Positions 11,922 to 58,961 of a stretch of 64,000 bases of DNA are shown here, piece by piece (the stretch's first letter is position 1; each line of letters opens with the position of its first letter). The notes beneath the pieces are model-generated. The model searched no databases. It saw only the letters and a program-made list of their open reading frames with translations, and was not told the origin of the DNA. The stretch is from Marinagarivorans sp. (lineage in GTDB: Bacteria; Pseudomonadota; Gammaproteobacteria; Pseudomonadales; Cellvibrionaceae), in assembly GCA_046347475.1 (NCBI GenBank), contig JAXMGD010000003.1, positions 453,242 through 517,241 on the forward strand, in the 5' to 3' direction. A program made the translations under genes and the position numbers.

Positions 11922-13412
11922 CTAAGCCTCCCGGCGCCAAAACTCCTCCTGCCGTGGCAGGGTTTGCACCATGGTGTCTATGGCTGCCGCTGTTTTGGAC
12001 AATTCCTGATGCAAAAGCGCCGCCGATAGATGTGCAACCTTAGGTGAGAGATGGCGTGGCCTTATGCCCATGCCTTCAAAAATAGCCAGCCAACTGCTGG
12101 GGCGAAATAGGTCATCGCTGCGCTCATCCATTAACCCTTGGGCGGTAAATAAGTCGATGCGCTCTTGCAGGCTGTCGCTGATGGGCAGGCTCTGGCAGTG
12201 GCGCCAAAAAGCGCTGTCTTGGCGCTGGCTTTTTACATAATGCAGCTGCACAAAATCCCGCACCTCGGCAAAGTCTTTATTCATGCGCAGGTTGTAGGCC
12301 CGCGCCAGGCTCGGGTCGCATTGTTTGTGGGGTAAAAAACGCAGGAAAAAATCCAACCCGCGGGTAATTAAATGAATGGCGGTGGCTTCCAACGGCTCGA
12401 TAAAGCCTGCGGCCAGGCCCAAGGCCAGGCAGTTGTGCTGCCAGAACACTTGCCGGTGGCCGGTGGCAAAGGGCAGCACACGGGCCTGTTGCTCATCAAG
12501 GGGCAGCTGCGCTGAGCTGCATAACTCCTGCAGGGCTTTGTCGTCGCTGATGAAATCGCTGGAGTACACATAACCCATGCCTGTGCGTGAGCGCAGGGGA
12601 ATGGCCCAGCGCCAACCGGCTAAGGAGGCTTTGGCTTGGGTGTACAGGTGCGGGCGTGTTTGCGCGGGGGCGCGCAGGGCTAAGGCACGGTTACAGGGTA
12701 AAAAGCGCGACCAGTCGCACAGGGGCACTTTGAGAATCTGCCCGAACAAGAGGCTGTGAAAGCCGCTGCAATCGATAAAAAAATCGGCCCGGTGTTCGCT
12801 GCCATCTTCCAATAACAGGGCTTGCACAAACCCGCTGTCATCTTGCCGGGCGCCTACGACCCTGGCTGCTTGGGCGCTAAACGGGCGGTTCGCGCAGCGC
12901 TGCTTTAAGGCGGTCACTAGGCGCTCGGCATCCACATGCAGAGCGTAGTTGGCGCCGCCGATGGGGGTGTGTTGAGCCAGTTGGGGCGGGAAAAATCGCG
13001 CGTGCTGTGCCATCACCTGGCAGGGCGAAAACGCTTCCAGCGGCGCCACCGGGCCGTGTTCCTGGGCTTTTAACCAGCAGGGGTAAAAGTCCTGGCGCAA
13101 GATTTTGGCGCCGGTGCTGCCAAAGGGGTGAAAAAACCGCGAGTGTTTAACTCGCCAATCCACAAACTCGATGCCTAATTTGTAGGTGGCATCGGTCTGC
13201 TGCATAAATTGGGTTTCATCCAGCCCAAGGGATTTAATTAGGCCTACAAAAGGCGGCACGGTGGACTCCCCTAGGCCAATAGTGCCTATGTCGGGGGATT
13301 CAATTAAATGTATATGGCACTGCTCGCCGATCTCTTGGCTGAGAATGGCGGCGGCCAGCCAGCCTGCGGTGCCGCCGCCGAGAATAGTGATGGAGGTTAG
13401 GGGTTGCGACAT
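11922..13412 (-). CDS. Flavin-dependent tryptophan-halogenase-family protein
   Basis: N-terminal FAD motif ILGGGTAGW and the halogenase signature GWRWAIPL (WxWxIP). 496 aa. Confidence 0.75.
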   Translation of the reverse strand: MSQPLTSITILGGGTAGWLAAAILSQEIGEQCHIHLIESPDIGTIGLGESTVPPFVGLIKSLGLDETQFMQQTDATYKLGIEFVDWRVKHSRFFHPFGSTGAKILRQDFYPCWLKAQEHGPVAPLEAFSPCQVMAQHARFFPPQLAQHTPIGGANYALHVDAERLVTALKQRCANRPFSAQAARVVGARQDDSGFVQALLLEDGSEHRADFFIDCSGFHSLLFGQILKVPLCDWSRFLPCNRALALRAPAQTRPHLYTQAKASLAGWRWAIPLRSRTGMGYVYSSDFISDDKALQELCSSAQLPLDEQQARVLPFATGHRQVFWQHNCLALGLAAGFIEPLEATAIHLITRGLDFFLRFLPHKQCDPSLARAYNLRMNKDFAEVRDFVQLHYVKSQRQDSAFWRHCQSLPISDSLQERIDLFTAQGLMDERSDDLFRPSSWLAIFEGMGIRPRHLSPKVAHLSAALLHQELSKTAAAIDTMVQTLPRQEEFWRREA

Positions 13413-13446: not shown

Positions 13447-14409
13447 TTACCATCGGTAATAATCCGCTAGTGCATTAGAGTCGTCCTGTTCCTGCCAATG
13501 GGTGAAATCCCAAAAAACACTGCAGGAGGTAATTAAGGCCCGCTTGAGGGCATCTATTGCGCGGTGCCTGGGGAAGTTACTGCGCCAGTGCAGATACAAG
13601 GGCCTTTGGGGCGCCGGTGTCACCGGCAGCCAGGCCAAAAATTGGTTTTGCGCCACCGCCGCCTGGGCGGAGGATTTGGGCAGCAAGGTCACGGCTAAAT
13701 CCGCCGCCGTCACCTGCTTGAGCAGCTCAGTCCCTACGGTTGCCAGGCTGATTGATTTAAGCCCCATCTGCTGCAGGCAGGCCACCAGTGCGCTATCAGC
13801 GGCGGGAATTTGCAGGCGCTCGGCAATCTGCTCAAGGCTCAAGCAGGTTTGGGTATGAAAGGGATGTTGGCTTGGCAACAGGGCCACATAGGCCTCATCG
13901 GCGAGTTTGAGGGAGACAGTATCCGGCGCTTCGATGGGCTGGCAGTTGAGCAATGTGTCGATTTCCCCCGTGCGCAGATTGGCCACCAGGGCGCTGCTGT
14001 CCGCCTCCTGCAGCACCAGGGGCATCTGCGGCGCCAGCCACTTTAAGTGGCCGAGCACTTGGGGCAGCCACTCAGGCGCCAGTCCCTGTTGCACGCCGAG
14101 TTTTAAGGGCCCGTGCAGGTGATCGCCCAATTGCTGAGCCAGGTCTTTCATGGTTTGCACCTGGCCGAGGGCGACCTGAGCGCAGTGTAAAAGCGGTTCG
14201 GCCTGGGGCAATAAACGCACGCCGAGCTTGCTGCGCTCGAATAACTCAAGCCCCAAGGCGGCTTCGAGTTTTTTAATGCCCATACTTAAATTCGGCTGGC
14301 TCACATGGCACAGCGCAGCGGCTTTACCAAAATGTTGGGTTTTGGCCAGGGCGATAAAAAAGCGCAGTTCGTTGAGTGTCATGGGCGGGCAAAAGGCTAA
14401 GTGTGCCAA
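13447..14409 (-). CDS. LysR-family transcriptional regulator
   Basis: HTH region LNELRFFIALAKTQHFGKAAALCHVSQPNLSMGIKKLE. Likely true start at the internal Met (MTLNEL, about 14382). Confidence 0.8.
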   Translation of the reverse strand: MAHLAFCPPMTLNELRFFIALAKTQHFGKAAALCHVSQPNLSMGIKKLEAALGLELFERSKLGVRLLPQAEPLLHCAQVALGQVQTMKDLAQQLGDHLHGPLKLGVQQGLAPEWLPQVLGHLKWLAPQMPLVLQEADSSALVANLRTGEIDTLLNCQPIEAPDTVSLKLADEAYVALLPSQHPFHTQTCLSLEQIAERLQIPAADSALVACLQQMGLKSISLATVGTELLKQVTAADLAVTLLPKSSAQAAVAQNQFLAWLPVTPAPQRPLYLHWRSNFPRHRAIDALKRALITSCSVFWDFTHWQEQDDSNALADYYRW

Positions 14410-14520
14410 GTTCCGCCGCCAAACGCGAGGCGCCTAAAAATGTTTTGCAACGCGCTTAAAAAAACACGGCGCCAGGCTCAAGGCGCTCGTCCCGAAAGCG
14501 TTTAGAGCCAGGGTGGAATA

Positions 14521-14877
14521 TTAGTGGCTAATCATCCAAGGCCTGGCCGAGGGAAACATTTTTTCGCCCTGGGCTGTGTACAGCAGTGTGCGGGATTTTT
14601 TGTTTTGGCAGCCGCAGCCTTTTTTATGCTGATGATCATCCTCCCTGCGCGCTTTGCTAGAGAACTCCGGCGCGTGTTGGGCTTTTTCATTTAAGGCATG
14701 GGCTTTTTTAACTTCAGCAGGCAGCGTAAACAGCGCAGGATTCACCATAATTACCCGAGGCGATTGTGCGGCGCAGGTGGGGCACGCATTAGGCAGATGA
14801 GCCTCTTCCATAGTGGCCAGTTCAAAAAATAAACCGTGTTCGGCGCATTTATATTCATAGACGGGCATAGAGAACAT
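14521..14877 (-). CDS. fmdB: FmdB-family zinc-ribbon putative regulatory protein
   Basis: MPVYEYKCAEHG...CPTC, a CxxC...CxxC zinc ribbon typical of FmdB. Immediately downstream of the formamidase gene. Confidence 0.65.
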   Translation of the reverse strand: MFSMPVYEYKCAEHGLFFELATMEEAHLPNACPTCAAQSPRVIMVNPALFTLPAEVKKAHALNEKAQHAPEFSSKARREDDHQHKKGCGCQNKKSRTLLYTAQGEKMFPSARPWMISH

Positions 14878-14972
14878 TCTCCCCTGACAGGTTTTGCATC
14901 ACATAATAAAAAGGGGAAGTCGGCAGCTAAACTAATACAGCGAGCAAAAACCACCGAGCTTCCCGAAACCGT

Positions 14973-16202
14973 TTATTTATCTGGCGAGAGCGGAATATCC
15001 ACTGAGCCATCCAGCATTTTCTTCGGCCCATCGGCATTGGGCTTAATATCAAAGGCAAAAATATCCGTCGGCAGCCAGAGCGTTGCACAGGCATTGGGAA
15101 TATCCACCACGCCGCTAATATGCCCCTGCACCGGTGCCGTGCCTAAAATGGCATAGGCCTGTGCTTTGGAATATCCAAATTTGGTCATGTATTCAATGGC
15201 ATTTAAACAGGCTTGGCGGTAGGCGATGTGTACATCCAAATAATGTTGCTTGCCTTTTTCATCCACCGAAATACCTTCAAAAATCAAATAATCATCGTAT
15301 TTGGGGGTGATGGGGCTGGGTTTAAATACGGGGTTTTTAATGCCGTATTTTTTCACGCCATCTTTAATTAAATTTACCCGCAGGTGAATCCAACCGGCCA
15401 TTTCAATGGCGCCGCAAAAAGTGATTTCGCCATCGCCCTGGCTAAAATGTAAATCGCCCACGGATAGGCCGCCGCCTTTTACATACACAGGGAAATACAC
15501 CTTAGCGCCGCGCGATAAGTCTTTAATATCGCAATTGCCGCCGTGCTCCCGCGGCGGCACAGTGCGGGCGCCTTCGGCCGCCGCTGCTTTGGCGGCATCA
15601 CCTTTTAATTTACCCATATGGGCGGTTTCGGCATAGGGCAGGGCAGCCAGGGGCGGTGTGCGTTCAGGCTCGGTATCAAACAGGGCTTTTTCCCGCGCGT
15701 TCCACTCAGCCAACATTTCTTTCGACGGCAGGCAGCCGATTAAACCTGGGTGAATTAAACCGGCAAATTCCACCCCTGGCACATGACGGGAGCTGGTAAA
15801 CATGCCGTTAAAATCCCAAATGGATTTTTGCGCTTCAGGAAAATGTTCGGTTAAAAAGCCGCCGCCATTTTTCTTGGAGAAAAAACCGTTAAAACCCCAG
15901 AGGCTATTGGAAAACGCCCCTATATCTAAAATATCCACCACCAATAAATCGCCGGGCTCAGCGCCTTCAACCCCCACCGGGCCGGTGAGAAAGTGCACCT
16001 GGCTTAGGTCTACATCGCGCACATCATCGGCGTTGTCATTGTTAGCGATCTGCCCGCCGGTCCAGTCGTAACACTCCAAAATAAAATCATCGCCGGGTTT
16101 TACCATGGCGGCCATGGGAATATCCGGGTGCCAGCGGTTGTGAATGCCTTCGTTATCATAGGGTGAAGTGGATAAATCAACTTTTATTAGTGTTTCTGTC
16201 AT
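14973..16202 (-). CDS. fmdA: Formamidase/acetamidase (FmdA_AmdA family)
   Basis: 409 aa, matching the size and motifs of FmdA/AmdA amidohydrolases. Sits in an operon with urt-like ABC genes and fmdB. Confidence 0.75.
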   Translation of the reverse strand: MTETLIKVDLSTSPYDNEGIHNRWHPDIPMAAMVKPGDDFILECYDWTGGQIANNDNADDVRDVDLSQVHFLTGPVGVEGAEPGDLLVVDILDIGAFSNSLWGFNGFFSKKNGGGFLTEHFPEAQKSIWDFNGMFTSSRHVPGVEFAGLIHPGLIGCLPSKEMLAEWNAREKALFDTEPERTPPLAALPYAETAHMGKLKGDAAKAAAAEGARTVPPREHGGNCDIKDLSRGAKVYFPVYVKGGGLSVGDLHFSQGDGEITFCGAIEMAGWIHLRVNLIKDGVKKYGIKNPVFKPSPITPKYDDYLIFEGISVDEKGKQHYLDVHIAYRQACLNAIEYMTKFGYSKAQAYAILGTAPVQGHISGVVDIPNACATLWLPTDIFAFDIKPNADGPKKMLDGSVDIPLSPDK

Positions 16203-16245
16203 AACAAAACCCTCTGGGTTGGCGGGAATTTACTGTGTGTCTAAA

Positions 16246-16935
16246 TTAAACAGAAAGATAAGAAGCGATTTGCGCCTCGTTCACTTCGCTGCGCAATTGG
16301 TTTTTAACAATAATGCCTTTTTCCATCACTAAAATGCGATCGGCAATGTCTAAGGCAAAACTCAACACCTGTTCAGAGACCAAAATAGAAATACCTTTTT
16401 GATCGCGAATTTTTTTGAGGGTGTTGCCCATGTCCTTAATAATATTGGGCTGAATGCCCTCGGTGGGTTCATCCAAAATTAATACCTTGGGCTCGGTGGC
16501 GAGCGCCCGGGCTATGGCCAATTGTTGTTGCTGGCCACCGGATAAATTACCGCCCCGGCGCGCTTTCATCTCCTCCAAAACGGGAAACATCTCGTAAAGG
16601 TATTTGGGGATGCTCGTATTGCGGCCAGTGGCAAGGCCAGTTTGAATATTTTCTTGCACCGTCATGGTGGAAAAAATCATCCGCCCTTGGGGCACAAACG
16701 CAATGCCTGCACCTATGCGCTCATAACTTTTTAATTTAGAGACATTTAAACCATCTAAAATAATCTGCCCGGCTTTATGGGCGATCATGCCCACCAAGGA
16801 TTTCATCAGGGTGGTTTTGCCCATGCCATTGCGGCCCACCACGGCGACAATTTCATTTTTGCCTACAGAAAAATCAATGCCGTGGATCACTTCACTTTGG
16901 CCGTAGCTGACGGTGTAATCGCTGAGACTTAACAT
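16246..16935 (-). CDS. urtE: Urea/short-chain-amide ABC transporter ATPase (UrtE-like)
   Basis: Walker A GRNGMGKTT and ABC signature LSGGQQQ. 229 aa. Last gene of a five-gene ABC cluster. Confidence 0.75.
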   Translation of the reverse strand: MLSLSDYTVSYGQSEVIHGIDFSVGKNEIVAVVGRNGMGKTTLMKSLVGMIAHKAGQIILDGLNVSKLKSYERIGAGIAFVPQGRMIFSTMTVQENIQTGLATGRNTSIPKYLYEMFPVLEEMKARRGGNLSGGQQQQLAIARALATEPKVLILDEPTEGIQPNIIKDMGNTLKKIRDQKGISILVSEQVLSFALDIADRILVMEKGIIVKNQLRSEVNEAQIASYLSV

Positions 16936-16945
16936 AGAGTTCCCC

Positions 16946-17692
16946 TTAGTGACCGAGATAAACTTCTTTGACTTTTGGATCGTTTTTCACTTTCTCCATA
17001 GAGCCTTCAGAGAGCACCTTACCCTGGTGCATCACGGTGACTCGGTCGGCTATATCCTCCACAAATTGCATATCGTGCTCTACCACTAAAACCGAATGGT
17101 TTTTGGTAATGCGGTGTAATAACTCAGCGGTTTGTTTGCGCTCGGCGATGGACATGCCCGCCACCGGCTCATCGAGCATGAGCAGTTTAGGTTTTTGAAT
17201 TAATAACATGCCAATTTCCAACCACTGTTTTTGGCCGTGACTTAACAAACCCGCGGTTTTATACAGGCTATCCTGCAAAAAAATCATCGCGGCGGTTTCT
17301 TCTACACTTTGAATCACCTCCGCATCGCGTTTAAACGCCAGGGCGCCAAACACACTGTGGCCGCGCGGGAAGGAAATTTCTAAGTTTTCAAACACGGTTA
17401 AATCATCGTAAATAGACGGGTTTTGAAATTTGCGCCCCACCCCTGCATGCACTATGGCGTGCTCGCGCAGGCGGGTAAGTTCCTTGCCTCTAAATTTAAT
17501 GGAGCCGGAGGAGGCGCGGGTTTTACCGCAAATTAAATCCAGCACAGTGGTTTTACCTGCGCCATTCGGGCCAATAATCACGCGGATTTCGCCTTCATCT
17601 ACATAAAGGGATAAATCATTGACCGCTTTAAACCCGTCGAAGGAAACCGTCAGGCCTTCAATACTCAACAAAAAATCTTGGCTCATATTCAA
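16946..17692 (-). CDS. urtD: Urea/short-chain-amide ABC transporter ATPase (UrtD-like)
   Basis: Walker A GPNGAGKTT and signature LSHGQKQ. 248 aa. Confidence 0.75.
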   Translation of the reverse strand: MNMSQDFLLSIEGLTVSFDGFKAVNDLSLYVDEGEIRVIIGPNGAGKTTVLDLICGKTRASSGSIKFRGKELTRLREHAIVHAGVGRKFQNPSIYDDLTVFENLEISFPRGHSVFGALAFKRDAEVIQSVEETAAMIFLQDSLYKTAGLLSHGQKQWLEIGMLLIQKPKLLMLDEPVAGMSIAERKQTAELLHRITKNHSVLVVEHDMQFVEDIADRVTVMHQGKVLSEGSMEKVKNDPKVKEVYLGH

Positions 17693-17697
17693 GTCTC

Positions 17698-18852
17698 CTA
17701 GTGGGCGCTGGTGATAACAGGTTTAGTGGCTTTTGGCTTGCCCAGTTGCCCTAAAACGCCTGCCAGTTTTGGCGCTGCATAGGTTTGGTAAATACCGGCT
17801 AAACCATTGGGAAAGGCCATCACCACCGCAATAAACAAAGCGCCCATGGCGAATAACCACAGCTCAGGGAAGGATTCGGAAAAGGCGGTTTTAGAAAAAT
17901 TAATTAATAAGGTGCCGTATACAGCGCCTAAAATAGATAACCTGCCGCCTACGGCGCAGAAAATAACCATTTCAATGGAGGGCACTATGCCCACAAACGA
18001 AGGCGACATAAAACCCACTTGCAAGGTAAACATGGCGCCGCCTATAGCCGAAAATGTGGCCGCCAGGCAGAAAATAAATATTTTAAAGCTGGACACGTCA
18101 TAGCCGGAAAACCGCACCCTATCTTCCCGCTCGCGCATGGCCACCAATAAACGGCCGAATTTACTGGTGCGCACCCACTGAGCCGCTAGCAGGCAAAGTA
18201 TTAACAGCCCGGCGTTGACGAAATAAAGAATATTTTTAGCGCTATCCGTGCGTATATCCCAGCCTAAAAAAGTGCGTAAATCAGTAATGCCATTGACGCC
18301 GCCGGTATAACCCTGCTGGCCAATAATTAAAATGGTTAAAATAGAGGCGACCGCTTGGGTAATAATCGCGAAATAAACACCGCCCACGCGGCGCTTAAAC
18401 ATGGCCACACCAATAATATACGCAAATAAAGCGGGCAAAAATAATACGGCTAAGAGTGTAAAGGGTAGGCTGTGGAAGGGCTCCCAAAAAGCCGGTAAGG
18501 CGGTAATTTGGTTCCAGTCCATAAAGTCTGGAATGCCAGGCGTAGATTGAATTTTGGTGCTTTCAGGGTCAGAGGATTCGAGTTTTAAAAACATCGCCAT
18601 GCAGTAGCCGCCGATGCCAAAAAATACCCCTTGCCCCAGGCTTAAAATACCGCCATAACCCCAACATAAAACCAAACCCACCGCCACAAACGCGTAGGTT
18701 AGGTATTTACCCACCATGTTCAGACGGAAGGCATCTAAAAATAAGGGAAAAACAACTAATAAAATAACCGCTAACACCAAAAAGCCAATAAGGTCATTTT
18801 TGGGCATAAATGAACTAGTACTTGATGACAACATAAACCACCCCGTGTGCAA
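17698..18852 (-). CDS. urtC: ABC transporter permease (UrtC-like, branched-chain-amino-acid permease family)
   Basis: 384 aa polytopic membrane protein of the LivM/UrtC type. Confidence 0.7.
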   Translation of the reverse strand: MHTGWFMLSSSTSSFMPKNDLIGFLVLAVILLVVFPLFLDAFRLNMVGKYLTYAFVAVGLVLCWGYGGILSLGQGVFFGIGGYCMAMFLKLESSDPESTKIQSTPGIPDFMDWNQITALPAFWEPFHSLPFTLLAVLFLPALFAYIIGVAMFKRRVGGVYFAIITQAVASILTILIIGQQGYTGGVNGITDLRTFLGWDIRTDSAKNILYFVNAGLLILCLLAAQWVRTSKFGRLLVAMREREDRVRFSGYDVSSFKIFIFCLAATFSAIGGAMFTLQVGFMSPSFVGIVPSIEMVIFCAVGGRLSILGAVYGTLLINFSKTAFSESFPELWLFAMGALFIAVVMAFPNGLAGIYQTYAAPKLAGVLGQLGKPKATKPVITSAH

Positions 18853-18922
18853 TGGATAGCGATTAACGCTCTACAGGAGCCGGGCATTAATCGCTATTTG
18901 GCAAGTTAAATCGGCAGAATTT

Positions 18923-19864
18923 TTAGTGATGACGCATGCGCAGTGCGAACAAACCCTGCGGCCTGAGCATGAGAATAATGACAATGGCCAGCAGCGTGAG
19001 CACTTTGGACATAGAGCCACTCATAAAAAACTCCATGGTGGATTGTGCTTGAGAAATGGTAAACGCCGATGCAATGGTGCCTAATAAACTGGAGGCGCCG
19101 CCAAATACCACCACTAAAAAGGTATCCACTATATAAAGCTGGCCTGAGGTGGGGCCGGTGGAGCCGATCATGGTAAATGCGCTGCCTGCAACACCGGCAA
19201 TTGCACAACCTAATGCAAATGTCATGGCATCTACTTTGTGTGTATTAATACCCACCGCTGCCGCCATGGGGCGATTCTGCACCACCGCGCGCACTTGTCC
19301 GCCAGAGCGCGAGCGATACATCCAGTAATAAACAGCGAGGGAAATAAATAGGGTTAACACCATAACAAAAATGCCGTTGATGGGAATTTCAATGGAATCG
19401 GTCGGGTGCAGCGAACCCATCATCCACTCCGGCAAACTCACACCCACTTCGCGGGCGCCAAATACTGAGCGGTAGGTTTGCTGCATAATTAAACTTAAAC
19501 CCCAGGTGGCCAATAAGGTATCCAAGGGCCGTTTATATAAGTGCCGGATCATCACCCGTTCGATTAAATAGCCCAGGGCGCCGGCGGCAAAAAAGGCCAC
19601 AATCATCGCCACAAAAAAGTAGGCGGAAAACAAACTCGGCAAGTAGGTGGAAAACAGATTCGAAACTAAATAGGTAATATAGGCGCCGAGAATCATAAAT
19701 TCCCCGTGGGCCATATTAATTACGCCCATCTGGCCAAAAATAATGGCAAGGCCCAAGGCCATAAGCACAAAAACCGAAAAAAGACTTAAGCCTGCAAACC
19801 CTTGCATGGCAAAAATAGATAATAACTCTGCTGTTGAATAATCACCGAACATAAACCACCCCAC
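18923..19864 (-). CDS. urtB: ABC transporter permease (UrtB-like, LivH family)
   Basis: 313 aa polytopic membrane protein. Operon position between the binding protein and the second permease. Confidence 0.7.
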   Translation of the reverse strand: MGWFMFGDYSTAELLSIFAMQGFAGLSLFSVFVLMALGLAIIFGQMGVINMAHGEFMILGAYITYLVSNLFSTYLPSLFSAYFFVAMIVAFFAAGALGYLIERVMIRHLYKRPLDTLLATWGLSLIMQQTYRSVFGAREVGVSLPEWMMGSLHPTDSIEIPINGIFVMVLTLFISLAVYYWMYRSRSGGQVRAVVQNRPMAAAVGINTHKVDAMTFALGCAIAGVAGSAFTMIGSTGPTSGQLYIVDTFLVVVFGGASSLLGTIASAFTISQAQSTMEFFMSGSMSKVLTLLAIVIILMLRPQGLFALRMRHH

Positions 19865-19924
19865 TAATTGTGATTAAAAAAGCCGGAACATCGGGTGCAG
19901 AACGACTTCTGCACCCGAAAACTC

Positions 19925-21196
19925 TTATTGATAACCGGCAGGGAAGGGGTTGGGCTCCATCAGGTCTTTGGTTTCATACACCACCTTGTACTGGCCATCC
20001 GGTTGAGCCAGGCCTATGCGGGTTTTTGACCACAAGTGGTGGTTGGGGTGGATTTTTACGTAGCCTTCCGGTGCGGTTTTAAGCTCAATATCGGGCGAAG
20101 CTTTTTTGATTTTATCTATATCAAAGGAGCCGGCCTTTTCCACCGCTGCTTTCCACAACCAGGGCCCTAAATAGGCGGCTTGAGTCACATCACCGATCAC
20201 CACATTAGCGCCCCATTTTTCTTTAAAGGCTTTTACGAAGGCTTTGTTGTTGTCATTATCCAGGCTTTGGAAATATTTCATGGCGGCAAACGCGCCTGCG
20301 ATATTTTCACCACCGATCCCTTGAATTTCATCTTCAGTAACCGAGATGGTTAAAAGAGTTTGTTTATTCAGCTCAATGCCCGCGGCTTTTAATTGCTTGT
20401 AAAAGGCCACGTTCGAGCCGCCCACCACAATGGCGTAAATAACATCCGGTTTTTTGAGCTTAATTTTGTTGATCACCGAGTTAAATTGGGTATGGCCGAG
20501 CGGATAATATTCTTCACCCACTACGCTTAAGCCCAGCTTTTCAATGTGTTTGCGGGCAATTTTGTTGGAGGTGCGCGGCCAGATATAATCAGAGCCCAAT
20601 AAATAAAAGGTTTTTGCGCCTTTTTCTTTCACTACCCAGTCAATGCCGGCCAATATTTGTTGGGTAGCCTCTTGGCCGGTGTAAATTACGTTAGGCGATT
20701 GTTCTAAGCCTTCGTAAAAGGTCGGGTAATACAACATACCGTTGTACTGTTCAAATACAGGTAACACCGCTTTACGGGAGGCCGATGTCCAGCAGCCGAA
20801 TACGGCAGCCGCCTTATCGTTTACCAAAAGTTTTTTGGATTTTTCAGCGAAGGTTGGCCAGTCGCTGGCGCCATCTTCTTGAATAAATTCTATTTTGCGG
20901 CCTAATACCCCGCCTGCGGCATTAATTTGTTCAATGGCGAGTTTTTCTGCTTGCACAGAACCGGTTTCGCTGATGGCCATGGTACCGGTGACCGAATGTA
21001 AAATACCGACTTTTACTGTGCTGTCGGTAACGGCAAGGCCGGTGGTGTTTACCTCGGCCGTGCTGGTGCCTGCAAAACTGGCTGCACACAGTAGGGAACT
21101 ACTTAAAAACGCCGATATTTTTTTAAGAAATAAAGATGGGGTGTGTTTAATAGCGGTGGAGCGCTTACTTAATGGTAGACAATTTTGACTAAGCAT
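19925..21196 (-). CDS. urtA: Periplasmic urea/amide-binding protein (UrtA/FmdD-like)
   Basis: 423 aa with signal peptide and a type-I periplasmic binding fold (LivK-like). First gene of the cluster. Confidence 0.75.
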   Translation of the reverse strand: MLSQNCLPLSKRSTAIKHTPSLFLKKISAFLSSSLLCAASFAGTSTAEVNTTGLAVTDSTVKVGILHSVTGTMAISETGSVQAEKLAIEQINAAGGVLGRKIEFIQEDGASDWPTFAEKSKKLLVNDKAAAVFGCWTSASRKAVLPVFEQYNGMLYYPTFYEGLEQSPNVIYTGQEATQQILAGIDWVVKEKGAKTFYLLGSDYIWPRTSNKIARKHIEKLGLSVVGEEYYPLGHTQFNSVINKIKLKKPDVIYAIVVGGSNVAFYKQLKAAGIELNKQTLLTISVTEDEIQGIGGENIAGAFAAMKYFQSLDNDNNKAFVKAFKEKWGANVVIGDVTQAAYLGPWLWKAAVEKAGSFDIDKIKKASPDIELKTAPEGYVKIHPNHHLWSKTRIGLAQPDGQYKVVYETKDLMEPNPFPAGYQ

Positions 21197-21647
21197 AATG
21201 TTTCCTCAAAAGACCAGCGGGCAAATCGAGGTGCCATGGTTGATCAAAATGGGCAGGGAAACTATGCGGCAAATGTCGCAGGTGTATACGTCATTTACCC
21301 CAGGTAGTGGCGCAGAGCATTGGAGCGGTTTTTGACGAGTCGTGTGAGCGCGCAGAAATAATGTGCCGAGGACAAATAGAGTTGGCCGCACAGATTGGCA
21401 TAACACTGGCTATAGAAGCAGTGGCATATAATGTCTGCCACCCGAATTTTGGCGGTAATTGTGTCGGCATTGTCTATGATCGCTTGGTTTACACAGGCTT
21501 ATGCGGGGCACTTTTCTTACATGGATGTTTTTGAGCACACGCCAACACAACCTTACTAAGGCTTTTAATTCTTACATTATCGCGATTTTTCGCACTCGCT
21601 TGCTTAGGGCGCGCACTAAAAGCAGTCATTAGAGCGATGTATTTTCT

Positions 21648-24600
21648 ATGAATGCACCACAACAGATCTTTCGCGTGCGCAGGCAATACAACCAGTGGGT
21701 GAATAATCAAACCCTGGAAGATTACGCCCTGCGTTTTACCGCGAAGCATGCGCGCCGCTGGTCGCCTTTAAGTGTGGCGACTACTGCGCTGGGCGGCATT
21801 TCATTTTTAGCCCTTGAGGCCATAGGTGCCGTTAATACTTTAAGTTTTGGCGTTGCCAACACCCTGGTGGCCACCTGTTGTGTGGCGCTGCTTATTTTTA
21901 TTATGGGCACACCCATTTGTTATTACGCCGCCAAATACGGCTTGGATATAGATCTATTAACCCGCGGTGCAGGCTTCGGTTATCTAGGCTCTACCATCAC
22001 CTCATTAATTTACGCATCGTTTACGTTTATTTTTTTCGCCCTTGAGGCCGCTATCATGGCGCTGGCCCTCGAACATCTACTGCATGTGCCCTTATTTATT
22101 GGTTATATCCTCTGCTCCCTGATTATTATTCCCCTGGTCACCTTTGGTATAACGCTCATCAGCCAGCTGCAAAAATTTACCCAGCCCGTGTGGATTGTTT
22201 TGCAGCTATTGCCGTTTATTGCGCTGTTTGCCACCCAGGGCGATATTCTGGCCCAGTGGGTAGACTATCCGGGTAATACTGGCCGGGGTGAGGTGGCCAT
22301 TATGTATTGGGGGGCGGCCGCATCGGTACTATTTGCGCTGGTGGCCCAAATTGGCGAGCAAGTGGATTATCTGCGTTTTATGCCGGAAAAAACCCCGCAT
22401 AATCGCTGGCAGTGGTGGATCAATTTATTCGTGGCAGGCCCAGGTTGGATACTTTTGGGGGCGGCTAAAATTATGGCGGGTTCACTTTTGGCCTATGTGG
22501 CCATTGGGCAGGGATTAAATGCGGCGGATGCCAGTGACCCGACTCATATGTACCGAGTGGGGTTTTCTTTTTTAACCACTTCACCCACATTGGCGCTGGT
22601 GCTAGCGGCTATTTTTGTCATGGTGTCGCAAATAAAAATAAATGTCACCAATGCCTACGCAGGTTCCATTGCCTGGTCGAATTTTTTCTCGCGCTTAACC
22701 CATAGCCATCCAGGCCGTGTGGTATGGCTAATTTTTAATGTATTTATTTCCTTATCCTTAATGGAGCTGGGTATCTACCACGCCTTTGAGGCCACGCTGG
22801 GCATTTATGCTCTGATCGCCCTTGCTTGGCTTGGCAGTTTATTTGCGGATTTAAGCATTAATAAACCGCTTAAACTCAGCCCCCAGCACATCGAATTTAA
22901 ACGCGCTTATTTATATGCCATTAATCCTGTAGGGGTTGGCAGCATGTTACTCGCCAGTGCCCTGGGCGTTACCAGCTATTTAGGCGGCTTGGGTGTGGAA
23001 TTAAAAGCCTGGGCGCCTTTTATTACCCTAGGCAGTACACTCATTTTAGTGCCTGCCATCGCCTGGATTACCGGCGGCCGCTATTATTTGGCGCGGGAAA
23101 ATCAACTGCTCGAGGTGGCCGCTCAGCACACCTGTTGTATTTGCCAAAATTCCTACGAGCCTGAGGATGTAGCCCTCTGCCCGGCGTATAACGGCCCGAT
23201 CTGTTCGTTGTGTTGTTCGCTGGATTCGCGCTGTAATGACGTGTGCAAGCCCAAACACAATGCTACCCAGGCTTTATTGGGCTACCTGCAAAAATACCTG
23301 CGCAACACCATCAACCCTGCTGCGGGTAGGCTGAGCGTACATTTTTTTGCGCTGTTTATTCTGTTGGGGGTTGTCACCGCCGTACTGCTGCATTTGGTGA
23401 TGTTTAATGTGCAGCCTACCTCGGTAGAAACCCGCCAATTGTTACAGCATACGCTGCTAAAAGTCTTTTTTATCCTAATGATTATTGCAGGCGTAATTAT
23501 TTGGCTGGTGGTGTTAGCCCATGAAAGCAGGCAGGTGGCGCAAGATGAATCCCAACGGCAAAACCGTTTATTGTTAGAAGAAATCAGCGCTCACCGCGCT
23601 ACGGATTTGCAATTACAAAAAGCCAAAGAACAGGCCGAAGCAGCCAATAATGCCAAAAGCCGCTATTTAACCGGCATCAGCCACGAGTTGCGCACCCCGC
23701 TAAATGCCATATTAGGCTACGCCCAACTGCTTGAGCACGACCCGGAAATTCCGCCGGCCAAACGGGAAAAAATCGCCGTCATGCGCAACAGCAGCCAACA
23801 CCTGGAAGATTTAATAGAAGGCCTGTTGGATATTTCTAAAATTGAATCTGGCCGCTTGGATATTCGCCGTAATAAAGTGAATATCCGTGAGTTATTTGAG
23901 CAGGTTGTCTCTTTGTTTAGATTGCAAGCCGAAGAGAAAAACCTAGCGTTTATTTATCAGCTCACCAGCCCCTTGCCTGAGCGAGTGATTACGGACGAAC
24001 AGAGGCTACGGCAAATTTTAATTAATCTATTGTCCAACGCCATTAAATACACCCAGGAGGGCTACGTAAAATTGCAGGTAAAATACCGTAATCAGGTGGC
24101 GGAATTTAGTGTTGAAGACTCAGGCGTGGGTATAGACGAGAGCGATAGAGAACTCATTTTTAAACCCTTTGAGCGCATCCGCCGCCCCGGTGTGCCGAGC
24201 GTTACCGGCACTGGCCTGGGCCTTACGATTACGCGTTTATTGGTGGATATTATGGGCGGTGAATTAGAAGTGTGCGCCAATACACCGCGCGGCACGCGTT
24301 TTACCGTTTGGTTAATGCTCTCCTCCGTGGTGGATGCCGAGCCCGTATCGGTGCAAACACCACAACAACCATTGGGTTTTTTAGGCGATAAAAAAACTGT
24401 GGTGGTAGTGGATGATGACCCGGCCCATCGGGGGTTAATTGGCGATATTTTAATTCCCCTCGGCTTTAATGTGGTGGAATGTGCAGATGCCGAAAGCCTA
24501 TTAAAACTGCGCAGCCAATTGGCGCCGGATATATTTTTATTAGATGTGAATTTACCGGGTATGCAAGGCTGGGAATTGGTGCAGCACCTGCGGCGTTATT

Positions 24601-24998
24601 TTCCTGATGTGCCCCTGGTAATGTTATCGGCCAATGTGCATGAAGAGCAGGGCGCCGATCTGATTAACCCCCTGCATACGGCCTATTTATTAAAGCCTAT
24701 TAAAGTAGCCCATTTATTAGGCGTGCTACAAAAATCTCTTCATCTCACCTGGCAATATGCCCCCGCCCTGAACGAGCGCAGTACAAGCGCCCCAGCTGCG
24801 GCTTTAGGGCTTAGTCGCGGGCAAATAGAACAGGCCATGGATTGGGCTAAAAGCGGCTATTTTAGCGCGCTAAAAAATATTTTTAATGAGTGGGAAGCCC
24901 AGTTGGGGGCGGATAACCGCCATATCATTACTTTAAAAACACTGCTGCACGCCATGCAGTTTAACCGCATTAATGAATACCTAAGTGATTGTTTATGA
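21648..24998 (+). CDS. Hybrid sensor histidine kinase with an N-terminal NCS1 (purine-cytosine permease)-like 12-TM domain, a Cys-rich segment, HisKA, HATPase and a C-terminal REC
   Basis: N-terminal region aligns with CodB-type permeases (YAAKYGLDIDLLTRGAGFGYLGST vs CodB GAKTGLTTHLLARFSFGVKGS). 10 Cys in 45 aa (CCICQNSYEPEDVALCPAYNGPICSLCCSLDSRCNDVCKP). H-box SHELRTPLNAILGYAQLL. REC domain VVVVDDDPAHRGLIGDIL...DIFLLDVNLPGMQGWELV. Confidence 0.85.
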   Translation: MNAPQQIFRVRRQYNQWVNNQTLEDYALRFTAKHARRWSPLSVATTALGGISFLALEAIGAVNTLSFGVANTLVATCCVALLIFIMGTPICYYAAKYGLDIDLLTRGAGFGYLGSTITSLIYASFTFIFFALEAAIMALALEHLLHVPLFIGYILCSLIIIPLVTFGITLISQLQKFTQPVWIVLQLLPFIALFATQGDILAQWVDYPGNTGRGEVAIMYWGAAASVLFALVAQIGEQVDYLRFMPEKTPHNRWQWWINLFVAGPGWILLGAAKIMAGSLLAYVAIGQGLNAADASDPTHMYRVGFSFLTTSPTLALVLAAIFVMVSQIKINVTNAYAGSIAWSNFFSRLTHSHPGRVVWLIFNVFISLSLMELGIYHAFEATLGIYALIALAWLGSLFADLSINKPLKLSPQHIEFKRAYLYAINPVGVGSMLLASALGVTSYLGGLGVELKAWAPFITLGSTLILVPAIAWITGGRYYLARENQLLEVAAQHTCCICQNSYEPEDVALCPAYNGPICSLCCSLDSRCNDVCKPKHNATQALLGYLQKYLRNTINPAAGRLSVHFFALFILLGVVTAVLLHLVMFNVQPTSVETRQLLQHTLLKVFFILMIIAGVIIWLVVLAHESRQVAQDESQRQNRLLLEEISAHRATDLQLQKAKEQAEAANNAKSRYLTGISHELRTPLNAILGYAQLLEHDPEIPPAKREKIAVMRNSSQHLEDLIEGLLDISKIESGRLDIRRNKVNIRELFEQVVSLFRLQAEEKNLAFIYQLTSPLPERVITDEQRLRQILINLLSNAIKYTQEGYVKLQVKYRNQVAEFSVEDSGVGIDESDRELIFKPFERIRRPGVPSVTGTGLGLTITRLLVDIMGGELEVCANTPRGTRFTVWLMLSSVVDAEPVSVQTPQQPLGFLGDKKTVVVVDDDPAHRGLIGDILIPLGFNVVECADAESLLKLRSQLAPDIFLLDVNLPGMQGWELVQHLRRYFPDVPLVMLSANVHEEQGADLINPLHTAYLLKPIKVAHLLGVLQKSLHLTWQYAPALNERSTSAPAAALGLSRGQIEQAMDWAKSGYFSALKNIFNEWEAQLGADNRHIITLKTLLHAMQFNRINEYLSDCL

Positions 24999-25906
24999 AA
25001 ACCTCAGAGTTTAGCGGCCCCTGTGTATTGATTGTGGATGATTCGGCCGATACCCTGTCTATGTTGAACGACACTCTTGAACAAGCGGGCATGAATTGTT
25101 TATTAGCGCTGGATGCCAAACAAGCGCTCTCCATCGCGGCGCGTATGCTGCCGGATATTATTCTGGTGGATGCCATCATGCCCAATACCACGGGGTTTGA
25201 TTTATGCCAGCAGCTCAAACACGAGCGGGAATTACACGATATTCCGGTGATTTTTATGACGGGCCTTAACGATGCGGACAGTTTAGTAAAAGCTTTTTCC
25301 GTTGGCGCGGCGGATTTTATTACTAAGCCTATTAACACAGCCGAATTAGTAGCCCGAATGCGCGTGCATATTGCCAACACGCGCATTCGCCAAAGCGCAC
25401 AATCAGCTTTGGATCAAGCGGGCCATTATGTTTTTGCTATTACGCCAACGGGCGCGCTCTTGTGGAGTACACCATTGGTTAATCAACTGCTACAACAGGC
25501 CGGTGCCGATGATGCCTGGATGAGTGCTCAATTAGCGGCACAATTAAAAACCTGGCTTGCGCGCAATCCCATGCAGGGCAATGCCCTAGTCATTCGCGCG
25601 CCTGAGCGAGAATTTAGTTTAATTTTGCTCGGCCACAGCGGCCCCGGGGAAATTCTATTGCGCTTGATGCCCAATCAAGGGTTGGATGAATCCCAGGTAT
25701 TGCGTGAGCAACTGCATTTAACCGGCCGTGAAGCGGATGTTTTATTGTGGATTAGCCGCGGTAAAACCAACCGCGAGATGGCGCAAATTTTAGAAATTAG
25801 CCCGCGCACGATTAATAAACACCTTGAGCAGGTGTTTAAAAAACTGCAAGTGGATAACCGCACCAGTGCAGCGCGGATTGCGCTAGAGGTATTCGCACAG
25901 AAGTAA
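24989..25906 (+). CDS. Response regulator: REC, middle domain, LuxR/FixJ-type HTH
   Basis: CVLIVDDSADTL...LVDAIMP receiver. C-terminal EADVLLWISRGKTNREMAQILEISPRTINKHLEQVFKKL. Overlaps the upstream kinase by 10 nt. Confidence 0.85.
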   Translation: MFMKTSEFSGPCVLIVDDSADTLSMLNDTLEQAGMNCLLALDAKQALSIAARMLPDIILVDAIMPNTTGFDLCQQLKHERELHDIPVIFMTGLNDADSLVKAFSVGAADFITKPINTAELVARMRVHIANTRIRQSAQSALDQAGHYVFAITPTGALLWSTPLVNQLLQQAGADDAWMSAQLAAQLKTWLARNPMQGNALVIRAPEREFSLILLGHSGPGEILLRLMPNQGLDESQVLREQLHLTGREADVLLWISRGKTNREMAQILEISPRTINKHLEQVFKKLQVDNRTSAARIALEVFAQK

Positions 25907-25966: not shown

Positions 25967-26887
25967 TTAAATAGGCACCTGAAACTTCAGTTCAGCTTGT
26001 TTTGCACAAAAATCGCTAATGCTCATGGATTTTCCTGCCGGGTCAAAAATTACAGGCATGGAAACACCGTCTAATAAATCGACGTAATTTTTGGGATATT
26101 TTTTGTTCAGCAATGGCATGACAGGCGCCACCACGTAGCAGCCGGACGCCAGCGCCGCTTTGCTGCAGAATTCTCGATTGGCTCCTATATTACAGCCGCC
26201 AAACCAGATGACACAGTTGGCCGCCATGCGGCCTTTTAGCGTTTTAAATACGCTTTCTACATTGCCTACATCCATTCGTAAATTGCCTAATTTGAAGCCT
26301 GCGACAAATAAGCAAATTTTGCTCATATCCTGTTTGTCGCGCTCGTTGGGCACGCCGCCATGGCTGGAGATCACTATATGGTGTGTGCCTTCGGCTACGC
26401 CGCTTAAGAGGCCTTGAGGGTTGGTGGCCACTTCACTAAATTTTCGTGTGGTCTGCATTTCATAGGCAACTGCATCGGGTGCATTAATAGCAACTGAGCG
26501 GCCTTCAAGTTTGGTGAGCGATATGGCCGCTGGTGTATTGGCTCTGCGCGCTAACACCTCAACTTGCATATGCACATCATCCATGATTTTGCTCGGATCA
26601 TTTTGGTAAAAATAAATCATCGTGAAACCAGGGCTTTCTGCATAAAACTTTACGCTGGCGCCAGCCCCTTTACTAGTTAGTGTGAGTGCTTTAGGCGCTG
26701 CGGCGCTCGGGCCTAAAACCACGTTAGGATTATTAGAGGCCACCTGTAAACCCGCAGTAAAATGTTCCACATTTAATTCAGCAAAGGCCCATTGGCGCAC
26801 CTGAACTTTCCAGAAGTAACCAGATGGGGTAAAAGAACAATTCGCCTTGGGAAAATTGGGGTGCCGGGTAAATTTGATTGCGGACAT
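25967..26887 (-). CDS. Hypothetical protein (306 aa); C-terminal half has possible His/Cys hydrolase-like motifs
   Basis: No confident family. Motifs IVISSHGG and VIWFGGCNIG resemble His/Cys dyads of caspase-fold or CHAT-like peptidases. This is speculative. Confidence 0.55.
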   Translation of the reverse strand: MSAIKFTRHPNFPKANCSFTPSGYFWKVQVRQWAFAELNVEHFTAGLQVASNNPNVVLGPSAAAPKALTLTSKGAGASVKFYAESPGFTMIYFYQNDPSKIMDDVHMQVEVLARRANTPAAISLTKLEGRSVAINAPDAVAYEMQTTRKFSEVATNPQGLLSGVAEGTHHIVISSHGGVPNERDKQDMSKICLFVAGFKLGNLRMDVGNVESVFKTLKGRMAANCVIWFGGCNIGANREFCSKAALASGCYVVAPVMPLLNKKYPKNYVDLLDGVSMPVIFDPAGKSMSISDFCAKQAELKFQVPI

Positions 26888-27817: not shown

Positions 27818-29419
27818 CTACTGGGTTTTTAGGCTAGAGAGGATCTGTCCAAAACCTAAGCCGAACTTGGCCAGATATTGTTTAAGCCGGTGGCTATCGT
27901 TACTGGAGGCTTTTTGCGTGCGGCTGGCGTTAAATAATGTGCGGCCGGCTTGCGCGAGGCTCACACTGCTTAAACATACTTCCACTACGGCATTTAATTG
28001 CAAGCGGTCAAATAAATCCATGGCGGCGAGGGTTTCATCATCGAGTAAATTTTTTAGATGATCCCTGTGGGAGGGCTGGTTTTGAAAACCACTCCAAGCC
28101 TGTTTTAGGCGGCTAATTTCACCGCTGACTATGTCCTCGCTAATTCGCCCGCCGCTGGCTAAGGTGGCCATGCGCGTAATGCTGGAGTTTAAATCGCGAA
28201 AATTTGCTCGCCACAGAGCTTCAGGCGAGTTGGCAAACTGTAAATACAGGCTGCGGGCTGCGCGATTAAAACTAACTTTGTACCCGGCCGCTTGGGTAAA
28301 TTTAGCCAGTTCATGCTCTAAGTTGGGTTCTAAATCTTCGATGCGCTCTTTTAACGAGGGCAGCCTGTAGGTCCATAAATTAATGCGGGCTAATAAATCT
28401 TCGCGAAATAATCCGTGCCGCACCTGTTCAAATAAATCCCGGTGGGTGCCAGCAATCAGTTGAAAATTGCTGTGTACGGCTTTATCGCTGCCAAGGGGTA
28501 TAAAGGTTTTTTCTTCCACGGCCCGCAATAACATGGCCTGTTCATCAAGGCCCAACTCGGCGATTTCATCGAGAAATAACAAGCCTTTGTCCGCTTCCCG
28601 CAACAGGCCGCTGCGAGCGTTCGCAGCTCCGGTAAAAGCGCCTTTTACATGGCCGAAGAGAGCGCTCATGGCGTTATCACCCCGCAGGGTAGCGCAGTTC
28701 ACCTCAATTAAAGGGCCGCTTAATTGGCCGCGCTGGTGTTTTAATTCATAAATGCGCCGCGCCAATTGGGATTTGCCCGCGCCCGTGGGGCCATTTAATA
28801 AAATCGGCGCGCGGGATTTTATGGACACCTGCTCAATTTGTGCGATAAGCGCATTAAATTCAGCGTTGCGGGTGTGAATACCATTTTTTAAATGGGTGAG
28901 GGCGTCTTGAGTTTCTTTGGCAAAGCGCGAGGCGATTTGATCATAGCGGGAGAGATCCAAATCGATAATCTGGTAGCTGCCTTGGGTGCCTTCTTTACTG
29001 GGCGAAGCCTGAATTAATTTACCCGGCAGGTAATGCGCTTCGGTTAATAAATACAAACAAATTTGTACCACATGGGTACCGGTAGTGATGTTAATAAAAT
29101 ACTGGTTGCGCTCCACATCAAACGCATAGTTGCGGGCTACATCGTGCAGGGCGCCGTACACCTGCTCAAAATCCCATGCATCGGCCACGTCTATAGGCAC
29201 GGCTGTTACCTGGGTGTTGGGCGCAACGCTTGCCATATCCGCAAGGGTTACGCGCAGCAGGGCCTCATCCCCCGGCATATACAGCAACAGATATTCACTA
29301 ATTATCAGCTGCGGGTGCATAAGTAGGGCGAGGCTCGGCCGCCAGCGATCCCAGCGTTTTTTACCCAGCCCACCGTGGTCCAGGCGAGAGCCTAGAATGC
29401 CAATCAATACATTATTCAT
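27818..29419 (-). CDS. rtcR: RtcR, sigma-54-dependent transcriptional activator with N-terminal CARF domain
   Basis: N-terminus MNNVLIGILGSRLDHGGLGKKRWDRWRPSLALL matches the RtcR CARF domain. AAA+ sigma-54 interaction domain (GPTGAGKS, GAFTGA). Divergent from rtcB. Confidence 0.85.
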   Translation of the reverse strand: MNNVLIGILGSRLDHGGLGKKRWDRWRPSLALLMHPQLIISEYLLLYMPGDEALLRVTLADMASVAPNTQVTAVPIDVADAWDFEQVYGALHDVARNYAFDVERNQYFINITTGTHVVQICLYLLTEAHYLPGKLIQASPSKEGTQGSYQIIDLDLSRYDQIASRFAKETQDALTHLKNGIHTRNAEFNALIAQIEQVSIKSRAPILLNGPTGAGKSQLARRIYELKHQRGQLSGPLIEVNCATLRGDNAMSALFGHVKGAFTGAANARSGLLREADKGLLFLDEIAELGLDEQAMLLRAVEEKTFIPLGSDKAVHSNFQLIAGTHRDLFEQVRHGLFREDLLARINLWTYRLPSLKERIEDLEPNLEHELAKFTQAAGYKVSFNRAARSLYLQFANSPEALWRANFRDLNSSITRMATLASGGRISEDIVSGEISRLKQAWSGFQNQPSHRDHLKNLLDDETLAAMDLFDRLQLNAVVEVCLSSVSLAQAGRTLFNASRTQKASSNDSHRLKQYLAKFGLGFGQILSSLKTQ

Positions 29420-29556: not shown

Positions 29557-29572
29557 TTGGCAACGGCCTTGC
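29557..29572 (+). promoter_or_regulatory. Sigma-54 (-24/-12) promoter for rtcB
   Basis: TTGGCAACGGCCTTGC is TGGCA-N6-TTGC with exact GG-N10-GC spacing, about 90 nt upstream of the rtcB start codon. Confidence 0.75.
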
Positions 29573-29661
29573 TATTAAGGGTTTATCTGGAGCATCGATC
29601 CAGCCAACACAAGGCGCAATGCCAACAGGCTGAGCGCTTATATAGATTCAAGGTGGAACCC

Positions 29662-58957: not shown

Positions 58958-58961
58958 GCCT

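Follow-up and report, generated by a model that had tools for sequence, protein, structure and literature searches.

A candidate urea and small-amide sensor kinase with an NCS1-like transporter domain, divergent from a urt-fmd operon in Marinagarivorans sp.

Urea and small amides count among the major sources of nitrogen in soil and sea, and for their use the Urt transporter serves as a standard marker gene. In the literature we found, it is not established by what means proteobacteria recognise them as inducers, in distinction from the sensing of general nitrogen status. Here we describe a two-component pair from Marinagarivorans sp. (Cellvibrionaceae), composed of a hybrid histidine kinase with a transporter-like sensor domain and a REC-LuxR response regulator, which lies divergent from an operon for urea/short-chain-amide uptake and hydrolysis, urtABCDE-fmdA-fmdB. 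The window analysed is a stretch of 64,000 nucleotides (nt), positions 453,242 to 517,241 of contig JAXMGD010000003.1 (assembly GCA_046347475.1), and coordinates refer to this window unless a related locus is named. From sequence comparisons with related loci, the pair very probably regulates the urt and fmd genes, and the gene context leads us to prefer urea or a small amide as the ligand of the kinase.

The urt-fmd operon and the divergent two-component pair

An earlier note, made from the letters of this DNA, had located nine genes here, and the list of open reading frames (ORFs) contains all nine at the same positions with strong family matches. The genes urtABCDE, fmdA and fmdB are on the minus strand and those for the kinase and the REC-LuxR regulator are on the plus strand. 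The gene nearest to the kinase, urtA (19925-21196, -), encodes the periplasmic urea/short-chain-amide binding protein (TIGR03407, 558 bits against a cut-off of 493). It is followed by the permease genes urtB (18923-19864, -; TIGR03409, 406 bits against 250) and urtC (17698-18852, -; TIGR03408, 442 bits against 296), and by the ABC ATPase genes urtD (16946-17692, -; TIGR03411, 379 bits against 304; the start codon is that of the ORF list, unrefined) and urtE (16246-16935, -; TIGR03410, 320 bits against 286). These five contiguous minus-strand subunits, each above its cut-off in the series TIGR03407-TIGR03411, bear out the claim that the Urt transporter is complete. The next gene, fmdA (14973-16202, -), encodes a formamidase of 409 amino acids (aa) that scores 781 bits against the NCBIfam equivalog NF045496 (cut-off 500) and 617 bits against Pfam FmdA_AmdA. 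The last gene encodes an FmdB-type zinc-ribbon protein of 118 aa with a C-terminal RPWMISH domain (14521-14877, -; Pfam Zn_ribbon_8; TIGR02605, 41.3 bits against 31.3; NF053663, 138 against 120). Because only 43 nt separate urtE from fmdA, fmdA is probably co-transcribed with urtE. That gap, together with a terminator-like hairpin and T-run 35 nt past the fmdB stop (14469-14486, -), makes the seven genes look like one operon, of which the hairpin is the probable end.

Immediately past fmdB the minus strand carries a tryptophan-halogenase-family gene (11922-13412, -) and a gene for a LysR regulator (13447-14409, -). The LysR gene was left out of the system, as no conserved LysR gene follows fmdB among the inspected genes of the relatives, loci in which no dedicated LysR search was made.

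The kinase gene (21648-24998, +) is separated from urtA by an intergenic region of 451 nt and encodes a protein of 1116 aa. Its C-terminal half holds HisKA (residues 669-735, 61.9 bits), HATPase_c (782-891, 89.4 bits) and a REC domain (Response_reg, 918-1025, 70.8 bits), all above the Pfam cut-offs and together covering residues 669-1025 (23652-24722, +). The phospho-accepting residue His679 was located in HisKA and the acceptor Asp966 in the REC domain, and the protein is a HisKA-type hybrid sensor histidine kinase. No STAC or PAS domain was found in the kinase, nor any Pfam domain between the transmembrane (TM) region and HisKA, and the C-terminal tail contains no HPt domain (Pfam, E<=10). 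The tail runs on to residue 1116, and its last ~60 residues (~1056-1116, window 24813-24995) are missing from most homologues.

The N-terminal part of the kinase is composed of three elements. Residues 1-485 (21648-23102, +) form the sensor domain, predicted to be a 12-TM LeuT fold of the NCS1/CodB-like kind. Residues 494-534 (23127-23249, +) form a cytoplasmic cysteine-rich module that matches nothing in Pfam or the PDB. The earlier note had counted ten cysteines in this segment; there are nine, at positions 496, 497, 499, 511, 519, 522, 523, 529 and 533, and eight of them are invariant among 56 homologues. The module is presumed to bind metal. It is followed by an extra two-helix TM hairpin at residues ~557-631 (23316-23540, +), seen in the hydropathy profile and in the structural model (helices 561-587 and 593-639), which leads into a coiled coil and then into the DHp domain. 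The sensor had been described as a 12-TM permease; the 12-TM permease-like fold was recovered, and with the two further helices past the cysteine segment the protein has 14 TM helices in total.

The response regulator (24995-25906, +) is a protein of 303 aa in which an N-terminal REC domain (Response_reg, 93.3 bits) and a C-terminal GerE/LuxR helix-turn-helix (GerE, 62.4 bits) are separated by an insert of ~110 aa. The helix-turn-helix matches the NarL and VraR chains, and the domain order is that of a NarL/FixJ (LuxR-type) regulator. The insert (residues ~125-240) has no Pfam or PDB match, and it may be a family trait, since the regulators of relatives are similar in length (298-304 aa). Kinase and regulator are translationally coupled, as had been proposed: the ATG at 24995 overlaps the kinase stop as ATGA, and the 4-nt overlap recurs in relatives. 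This ATG is most likely the start of the regulator, and the TTG at 24989 given in the ORF list is probably not.

Fold and distribution of the sensor domain

The relationship of the sensor to NCS1 permeases is visible only at the level of the fold and of profile-profile comparison. A HMMER comparison with Pfam Transp_cyt_pur (PF02133), which the earlier note had put forward as a check, gave nothing for residues 1-490, even at E<=10. An AlphaFold2 model of kinase residues 1-640, made from 56 homologues (pLDDT 76.5, pTM 0.74), gives the sensor a 12-TM LeuT fold. The top Foldseek matches of this model are CodB (7qoa) and Mhp1 (2jln, 4d1a, 2x79), with E values of 6e-8 to 5e-7; other LeuT-fold families appear only from E 3.6e-5, and the SLC5-family structures SiaT and SGLT score below the NCS1 structures. 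When the sensor family was aligned with the CodB family by hhalign, 410 collinear columns were obtained (P 2.5e-5, probability 49.7%), and with a single CodB sequence the probability was 7.8%. Motifs kept in the family alignment are G-x-x-x-F in TM1, LL(T/A)R-x-FG-x-GS in the TM2-3 loop, D-(F/Y)-x-RF at the end of TM6, and T-N in TM8. Identity between the sensor and NCS1 proteins is ~15-20%, and COG-based names at JGI label homologues as 'purine-cytosine permease-like'. By the model, the sensor domain is NCS1-like in fold, and it is probably NCS1-like in descent.

The roles of the CodB residues, including nucleobase stacking by W108 and F204, are taken from the CodB structure paper, in which the two aromatic residues, on TM3 and TM6, between which the substrate ring is stacked are said to be conserved throughout NCS1 (PMC9379551). 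In the hhalign alignment, W108 corresponds to F129, which is still aromatic, F204 to the invariant leucine L231, and Q105 to T126, so that the sandwich pair is not kept; this register is tentative because the hhalign probability is only ~50%. By this mapping the sensor would not be a binder of nucleobases or hydantoins, which speaks against the classical NCS1 substrates (hydantoin, allantoin, cytosine, uracil) that the earlier note had considered as the signal. In the same tentative register, three positions of the Na2 site are kept (G29 as G49, T279 as T334, N280 as N335), T278 is replaced by V333 and N275 by an invariant lysine, K330. This pattern suggests that the corresponding site is probably not occupied by Na+.

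The sensor family is large. There are >5500 homologues among the scored candidates, an exhaustive search matched 1941 cluster representatives (50% identity clusters) at E<=0.001, and the sensor is encoded by at least 599 species-level genomes. Members from alpha-, beta- and gammaproteobacteria and cyanobacteria are 50-62% identical. An exact-sequence search with the window kinase returned no record; its closest relatives are from Cellvibrionaceae, with a sensor ~60% identical. About 190 positions are invariant among 56 sensor sequences, including the eight cysteines and charged or polar residues within TM helices. Among these invariant residues, E133, Q234, E237, Q238, D240, K330, N332, T334 and N335 are predicted to line the central LeuT-fold site. 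As Pfam does not cover the family, its members currently carry only generic labels such as 'ATP-binding protein' or 'hybrid sensor kinase'.

The sensor module is also found outside kinases of the type described here. It is fused to kinase-REC-Hpt outputs, the Hpt being seen in distant members (P0155, P0157), and in other organisms to PAS/GAF-GGDEF-EAL outputs (P0131, P0125); given the fusions to GGDEF-EAL, the signal of the module may feed cyclic di-GMP (c-di-GMP) signalling too. Kinase-less forms of 546-576 aa end right after the cysteine module and keep nearly all invariant polar residues of the kinase-fused forms, with the exception of E57. Since the same module occurs with varied outputs and alone, the NCS1-like domain and the cysteine module together are a modular sensor/permease unit.

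Conserved neighbourhood and a candidate operator

The proteins of the window were compared with 86 related loci, and gene arrangement was counted in the 66 species-level loci with at least 8 kb upstream. A urtA gene was taken as close when its product is at least 65% identical to the window UrtA; the products of the distant type are ~40% identical. A close urtA divergent from the kinase and followed by urtBCDE was found in 48 of the 66 loci, 46 of which have fmdA as well, and ten further loci have urtA elsewhere within 10 kb (two of the close type, L012 and L071, and eight of the distant type). An fmdB homologue comes after fmdA in related loci, and in virtually every locus the kinase gene is followed by the regulator gene. 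The divergent arrangement spans alpha-, beta- and gammaproteobacteria, and the UrtA proteins divergent from the kinase in these classes are 71-90% identical to that of the window.

Two other gene contexts were encountered. At loci L066 and L069, which have the distant urtA type, the divergent operon is composed of a gene for an ExtI/FmdC-like porin, urtABCDE and the urease genes ureD-ureA-ureB; the porin genes (L069 8525-9685, -; L066 8557-9630, -) score below the model cut-off. The gene for a kinase-less relative of 558 aa (P0182; L090/L091 8001-9677) has a LysR gene on one side and an amidase gene 33 nt downstream on the other, in a cluster that also encodes a second amidase, a CN-hydrolase, an amino-acid permease and an FmdA_AmdA enzyme. 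This protein is probably an amide permease. Because the formamidase, urease and amidase contexts share the hydrolysis of small amides, a ligand of the urea/formamide type is favoured.

By k-mer counting in 60 urtA-kinase intergenic regions, we found a palindrome, TACGTCA-NN-TGACGTA, of 7-2-7 form. With at most 4 mismatches it is present in 59 of the 60 regions, at ~30-fold the background density. With at most 2 mismatches it occurs 48 times in 1.63 Mb of related loci, and all 48 copies belong to the system. Of these, 43 precede urtA or fmdA at a distance of 25-205 nt; the five others are found upstream of the kinase, in three cases on contigs that break off before urtA would be reached. A detached fmdA, no longer next to urtE, has a separate palindrome before it (L014, L017, L023, L029, L068), perfect palindromes precede urtA genes located 5-9 kb away from the kinase (L028, L040, L044, L063), and at L069 the palindrome precedes the porin gene that leads the operon. 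Because the site follows its target genes wherever they are located, it is likely, from these sequence comparisons, to be the operator of the co-inherited REC-LuxR regulator, and its form of inverted heptamers with 7-2-7 spacing suits a GerE-type dimer. NarL 7-2-7 sites are composed of TACYYMT heptamers, which the predicted site may resemble.

The candidate operator of the window lies at 21287-21302 (plus strand TACGTCATTTACCCCA), where a perfect TACGTCA half-site is separated by 2 nt from a second, degenerate one. It is upstream of both genes, with its centre ~98 nt from the urtA ATG and ~350 nt from the kinase ATG. The palindrome of a Marinobacterium locus (L018) likewise has one perfect and one degenerate half-site. 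That the sensor may control expression of the urt-fmd operon had been suggested in the earlier note, and a regulatory link is strongly supported by the divergent arrangement in 48 of 66 genomes and by a palindrome that tracks urtA and fmdA even when these are relocated. A putative sigma-54 promoter, TGGCAC-N-TTTGC (~21220-21236, -), ~40 nt upstream of urtA, was also considered and rejected as a chance occurrence; it departs by one from the expected GG-GC spacing and is missing from all 59 related intergenic regions.

Proposed function, alternatives and related systems

We consider it probable that kinase and regulator form a conserved two-component module that responds to the presence of urea and short-chain amides by turning on their uptake and hydrolysis; activation of urt-fmd, rather than repression, is the most likely mode of control. 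The 12-TM domain, probably descended from a permease of the NCS1/CodB type, would bind urea, formamide and possibly acetamide at the central LeuT-fold site. A change of shape would then be relayed via the cytoplasmic eight-cysteine module and the two-helix hairpin (TM13-14) to the DHp and kinase core, and the kinase would autophosphorylate on His679. From there the phosphoryl group would go to the coupled REC-LuxR regulator, probably directly since the kinase is without an HPt domain, and the REC domain of the kinase (Asp966) would act as a modulator or phosphate sink. A dimer of the regulator bound to TACGTCA-NN-TGACGTA upstream of urtA (window 21287-21302) would finally activate urtABCDE-fmdA-fmdB. 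A wider proposal, in which we have somewhat less than even confidence, is that the NCS1-like domain and the eight-cysteine module constitute an undescribed and very widespread sensor of urea and small amides. Such a domain would fill the place of the missing inducer sensor in the urt/fmd/urease regulon of proteobacteria, with TACGTCA-NN-TGACGTA as the operator, would be wired elsewhere to c-di-GMP via GGDEF-EAL, and might work through a K330-based sodium-free switch and a zinc-bound linker.

Several points weigh against these proposals. Every step of the mechanism is put forward from sequence, model and context, and a hybrid kinase without HPt leaves several routes of phosphotransfer possible. 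Sensor residues 1-490 match nothing in Pfam (E<=10), NCBIfam or the sequences of the PDB (phmmer with a single sequence and with a profile), and the residue-level correspondence with CodB shares the uncertainty of its alignment. The operator of the window has 4 mismatches, so that it is missed when at most 3 are allowed, and only one of its half-sites is good; a scan of the urtA-kinase intergenic region found no sigma-70-like promoter or terminator. Five of the related kinase loci lack urt genes within 10 kb, and at two of them, L024 and L038, the neighbours of the kinase give no hint of the signal. Cyanobacterial members are often alone, with neither a REC domain nor an adjoining regulator. 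Finally, a metal or redox input through the cysteine module could supplement the amide signal or take its place.

The alternative that survives best keeps the ligand and changes what the domain does with it. The NCS1-like domain may be a true transceptor that still transports urea or an amide while the kinase reports the flux, as has been proposed for CbrA; the earlier note, too, had suggested that substrate flux may be coupled to expression of the operon. The kinase-less forms of the module, which sit in amidase operons like ordinary permeases, are consistent with this, and the charged residues that are invariant in the TM helices, among them K330 in the place of CodB N275, resemble those of H+-coupled LeuT-fold carriers (CbrA K196, PMC13022988). 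Against it, a high-affinity ABC importer is encoded alongside, which makes a second uptake route unneeded, E57 is invariant only in the kinase-fused forms, which hints at specialisation for signalling, and an Amt-fused sensor kinase has been described as an ammonium sensor/transducer and not as an ordinary transporter (PMC5764959). A non-transporting receptor is an equally possible reading, and we put transport by the domain, and with it the transceptor scheme, at clearly less than even.

An altogether different signal is improbable. Here the eight-cysteine module would sense metal or redox state, or the pocket would bind ammonium, cyanate or guanidine, and specificity for amides would come from other regulators. 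The eight invariant cysteines have no assigned role, and the expression of such operons responds to ammonia as well (PMC10781810), both of which fit this idea. However, the cysteine module is kept in kinase-less forms that end right after it, so that it looks structural or part of a permease unit, and the three independent contexts of formamidase, urease and amidase clusters are all concerned with amide C-N hydrolysis.

The kinase might not bind the amide itself and instead read how active or how occupied the Urt ABC transporter, or UrtA, is. Kinases that monitor a transporter are known in PhoR with Pst and BceS with BceAB, and the linkage of the kinase to urtABCDE is tight and ancient, with a UrtA unusually conserved at 71-90% identity across classes. 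Such co-sensing is slightly less probable still, as the module is also fused to GGDEF-EAL and found alone by amidases, in a locus with no urt among its called genes, as the kinase occurs at the five loci without nearby urt, and as the residues of the central site are invariant, as expected of a ligand pocket. That the pair regulates unrelated genes and is adjacent to urtA by coincidence we dismiss as very improbable: apart from the five loci without urt within 10 kb and the weak window copy of the operator nothing specific speaks for it, whereas the arrangement recurs in alpha-, beta- and gammaproteobacteria and the palindrome occurs only before urtA, fmdA, porin or kinase genes across 1.63 Mb.

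The proposed direct sensing of urea or a small amide by a transporter-derived kinase has parallels in the SLC5/STAC kinases CbrA, CrbS and RpuS (PMC7096432, PMC5715377, PMC9100948, PMC13022988). In CrbS/CrbR, CbrA/CbrB and RpuS/RpuR, as here, a LeuT-fold transporter domain is N-terminal to a histidine kinase. CrbS is, like the window kinase, a hybrid kinase, and its partner CrbR uses a defined DNA motif to activate transcription of a catabolic gene (PMC5715377). CbrA is active in transport as well as in signalling (PMC7096432, PMC13022988), and a 2026 preprint that terms it 'a rare transceptor' does not mention NCS1 fusions. The window kinase differs from this group in its scaffold, which is NCS1/CodB-like and not SLC5, in its linker, an eight-cysteine module and two-helix TM hairpin with no STAC or PAS domain detected, and in its target, the nitrogen-source operon urt-fmd instead of acetate, pyruvate or carbon-catabolite control. 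The transporters CodB and Mhp1 (TC 2.A.39, PF02133) share with the sensor the 12-TM fold, as its best structural matches, and the motifs of TM1, the TM2-3 loop, the TM6 end and TM8. Unlike them, the sensor has no PF02133 match, has in the tentative register K330 for N275 and F129/L231 for W108/F204, and adds the cytoplasmic cysteine module and fused signalling outputs.

Amt-fused ammonium sensors include the Amt-kinase Ks-Amt5 and the Amt-diguanylate cyclase Sd-Amt1 (PMC5764959, PMC11152129). In these also, a module that elsewhere transports a small nitrogen compound now serves as a receptor, with histidine kinase or c-di-GMP enzyme outputs, but the Amt trimer is not a LeuT fold and the ligand is different. 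With its NCS1-like scaffold, new linker and no STAC domain detected, the kinase belongs to neither the SLC5/STAC nor the Amt group. NCS1-like would be a second LeuT-fold scaffold among transporter-derived receptors, a short list made up so far of SLC5 kinases and Amt fusions.

On the side of the target genes, the fmdCAB-fmdDEF system of Methylophilus methylotrophus resembles the operon of the window in its formamidase, FmdB zinc ribbon and binding-protein-dependent amide/urea transporter, and an FmdC/ExtI-like porin is present in some related loci. The gene order is different and FmdB was there only proposed as a positive regulator; no two-component sensor for that system is described in the literature examined. 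A Methylophilaceae genome (L075) carries the kinase described here. The regulator shares with other NarL/FixJ proteins the REC domain, the GerE helix-turn-helix and a predicted site of inverted TAC-initiated heptamers with a 2-nt spacer, and it differs from them in its insert of ~110 aa and in the heptamer TACGTCA.

The earlier note had called permease-kinase fusions of this type poorly characterised, which appears correct: a full-text literature search returned no functional study of the NCS1-like sensor kinase family, although many papers in subscription journals lay outside that search and an earlier description is possible. One genome paper notes a urtABCDE operon beside a LuxR-type two-component pair and says no more of it (PMC13296017). 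For the sensing of urea and amides as inducers, the module offers a concrete and testable answer in the form of a sensor, a regulator, an operator sequence and a regulon. A switch responsive to urea or formamide could also serve the design of formamide-based bioprocesses (PMC10781810).

The remainder of the window holds genes of other kinds. An ORF of 306 aa (25967-26887, -) is not part of the system, having no homologue in the 86 related loci and no Pfam or NCBIfam match. Five large ORFs (456-1259 aa) are without a Pfam match at E<=1e-6 (1403-5182, 41576-42946, 45017-47557, 58890-60878 and 60996-62711). A Mutator-family insertion sequence (IS) transposase is encoded at 8130-9374 (+; Transposase_mut, 388 bits), and a gene for RtcR, a sigma-54 activator (27818-29419, -), is divergent from one for the RNA ligase RtcB (29557-30885, +). 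Other signalling genes encode a PAS histidine kinase (33116-34627), a REC-PAS-GGDEF-EAL protein (35167-37647) and a PhoR-type kinase (39953-41248).

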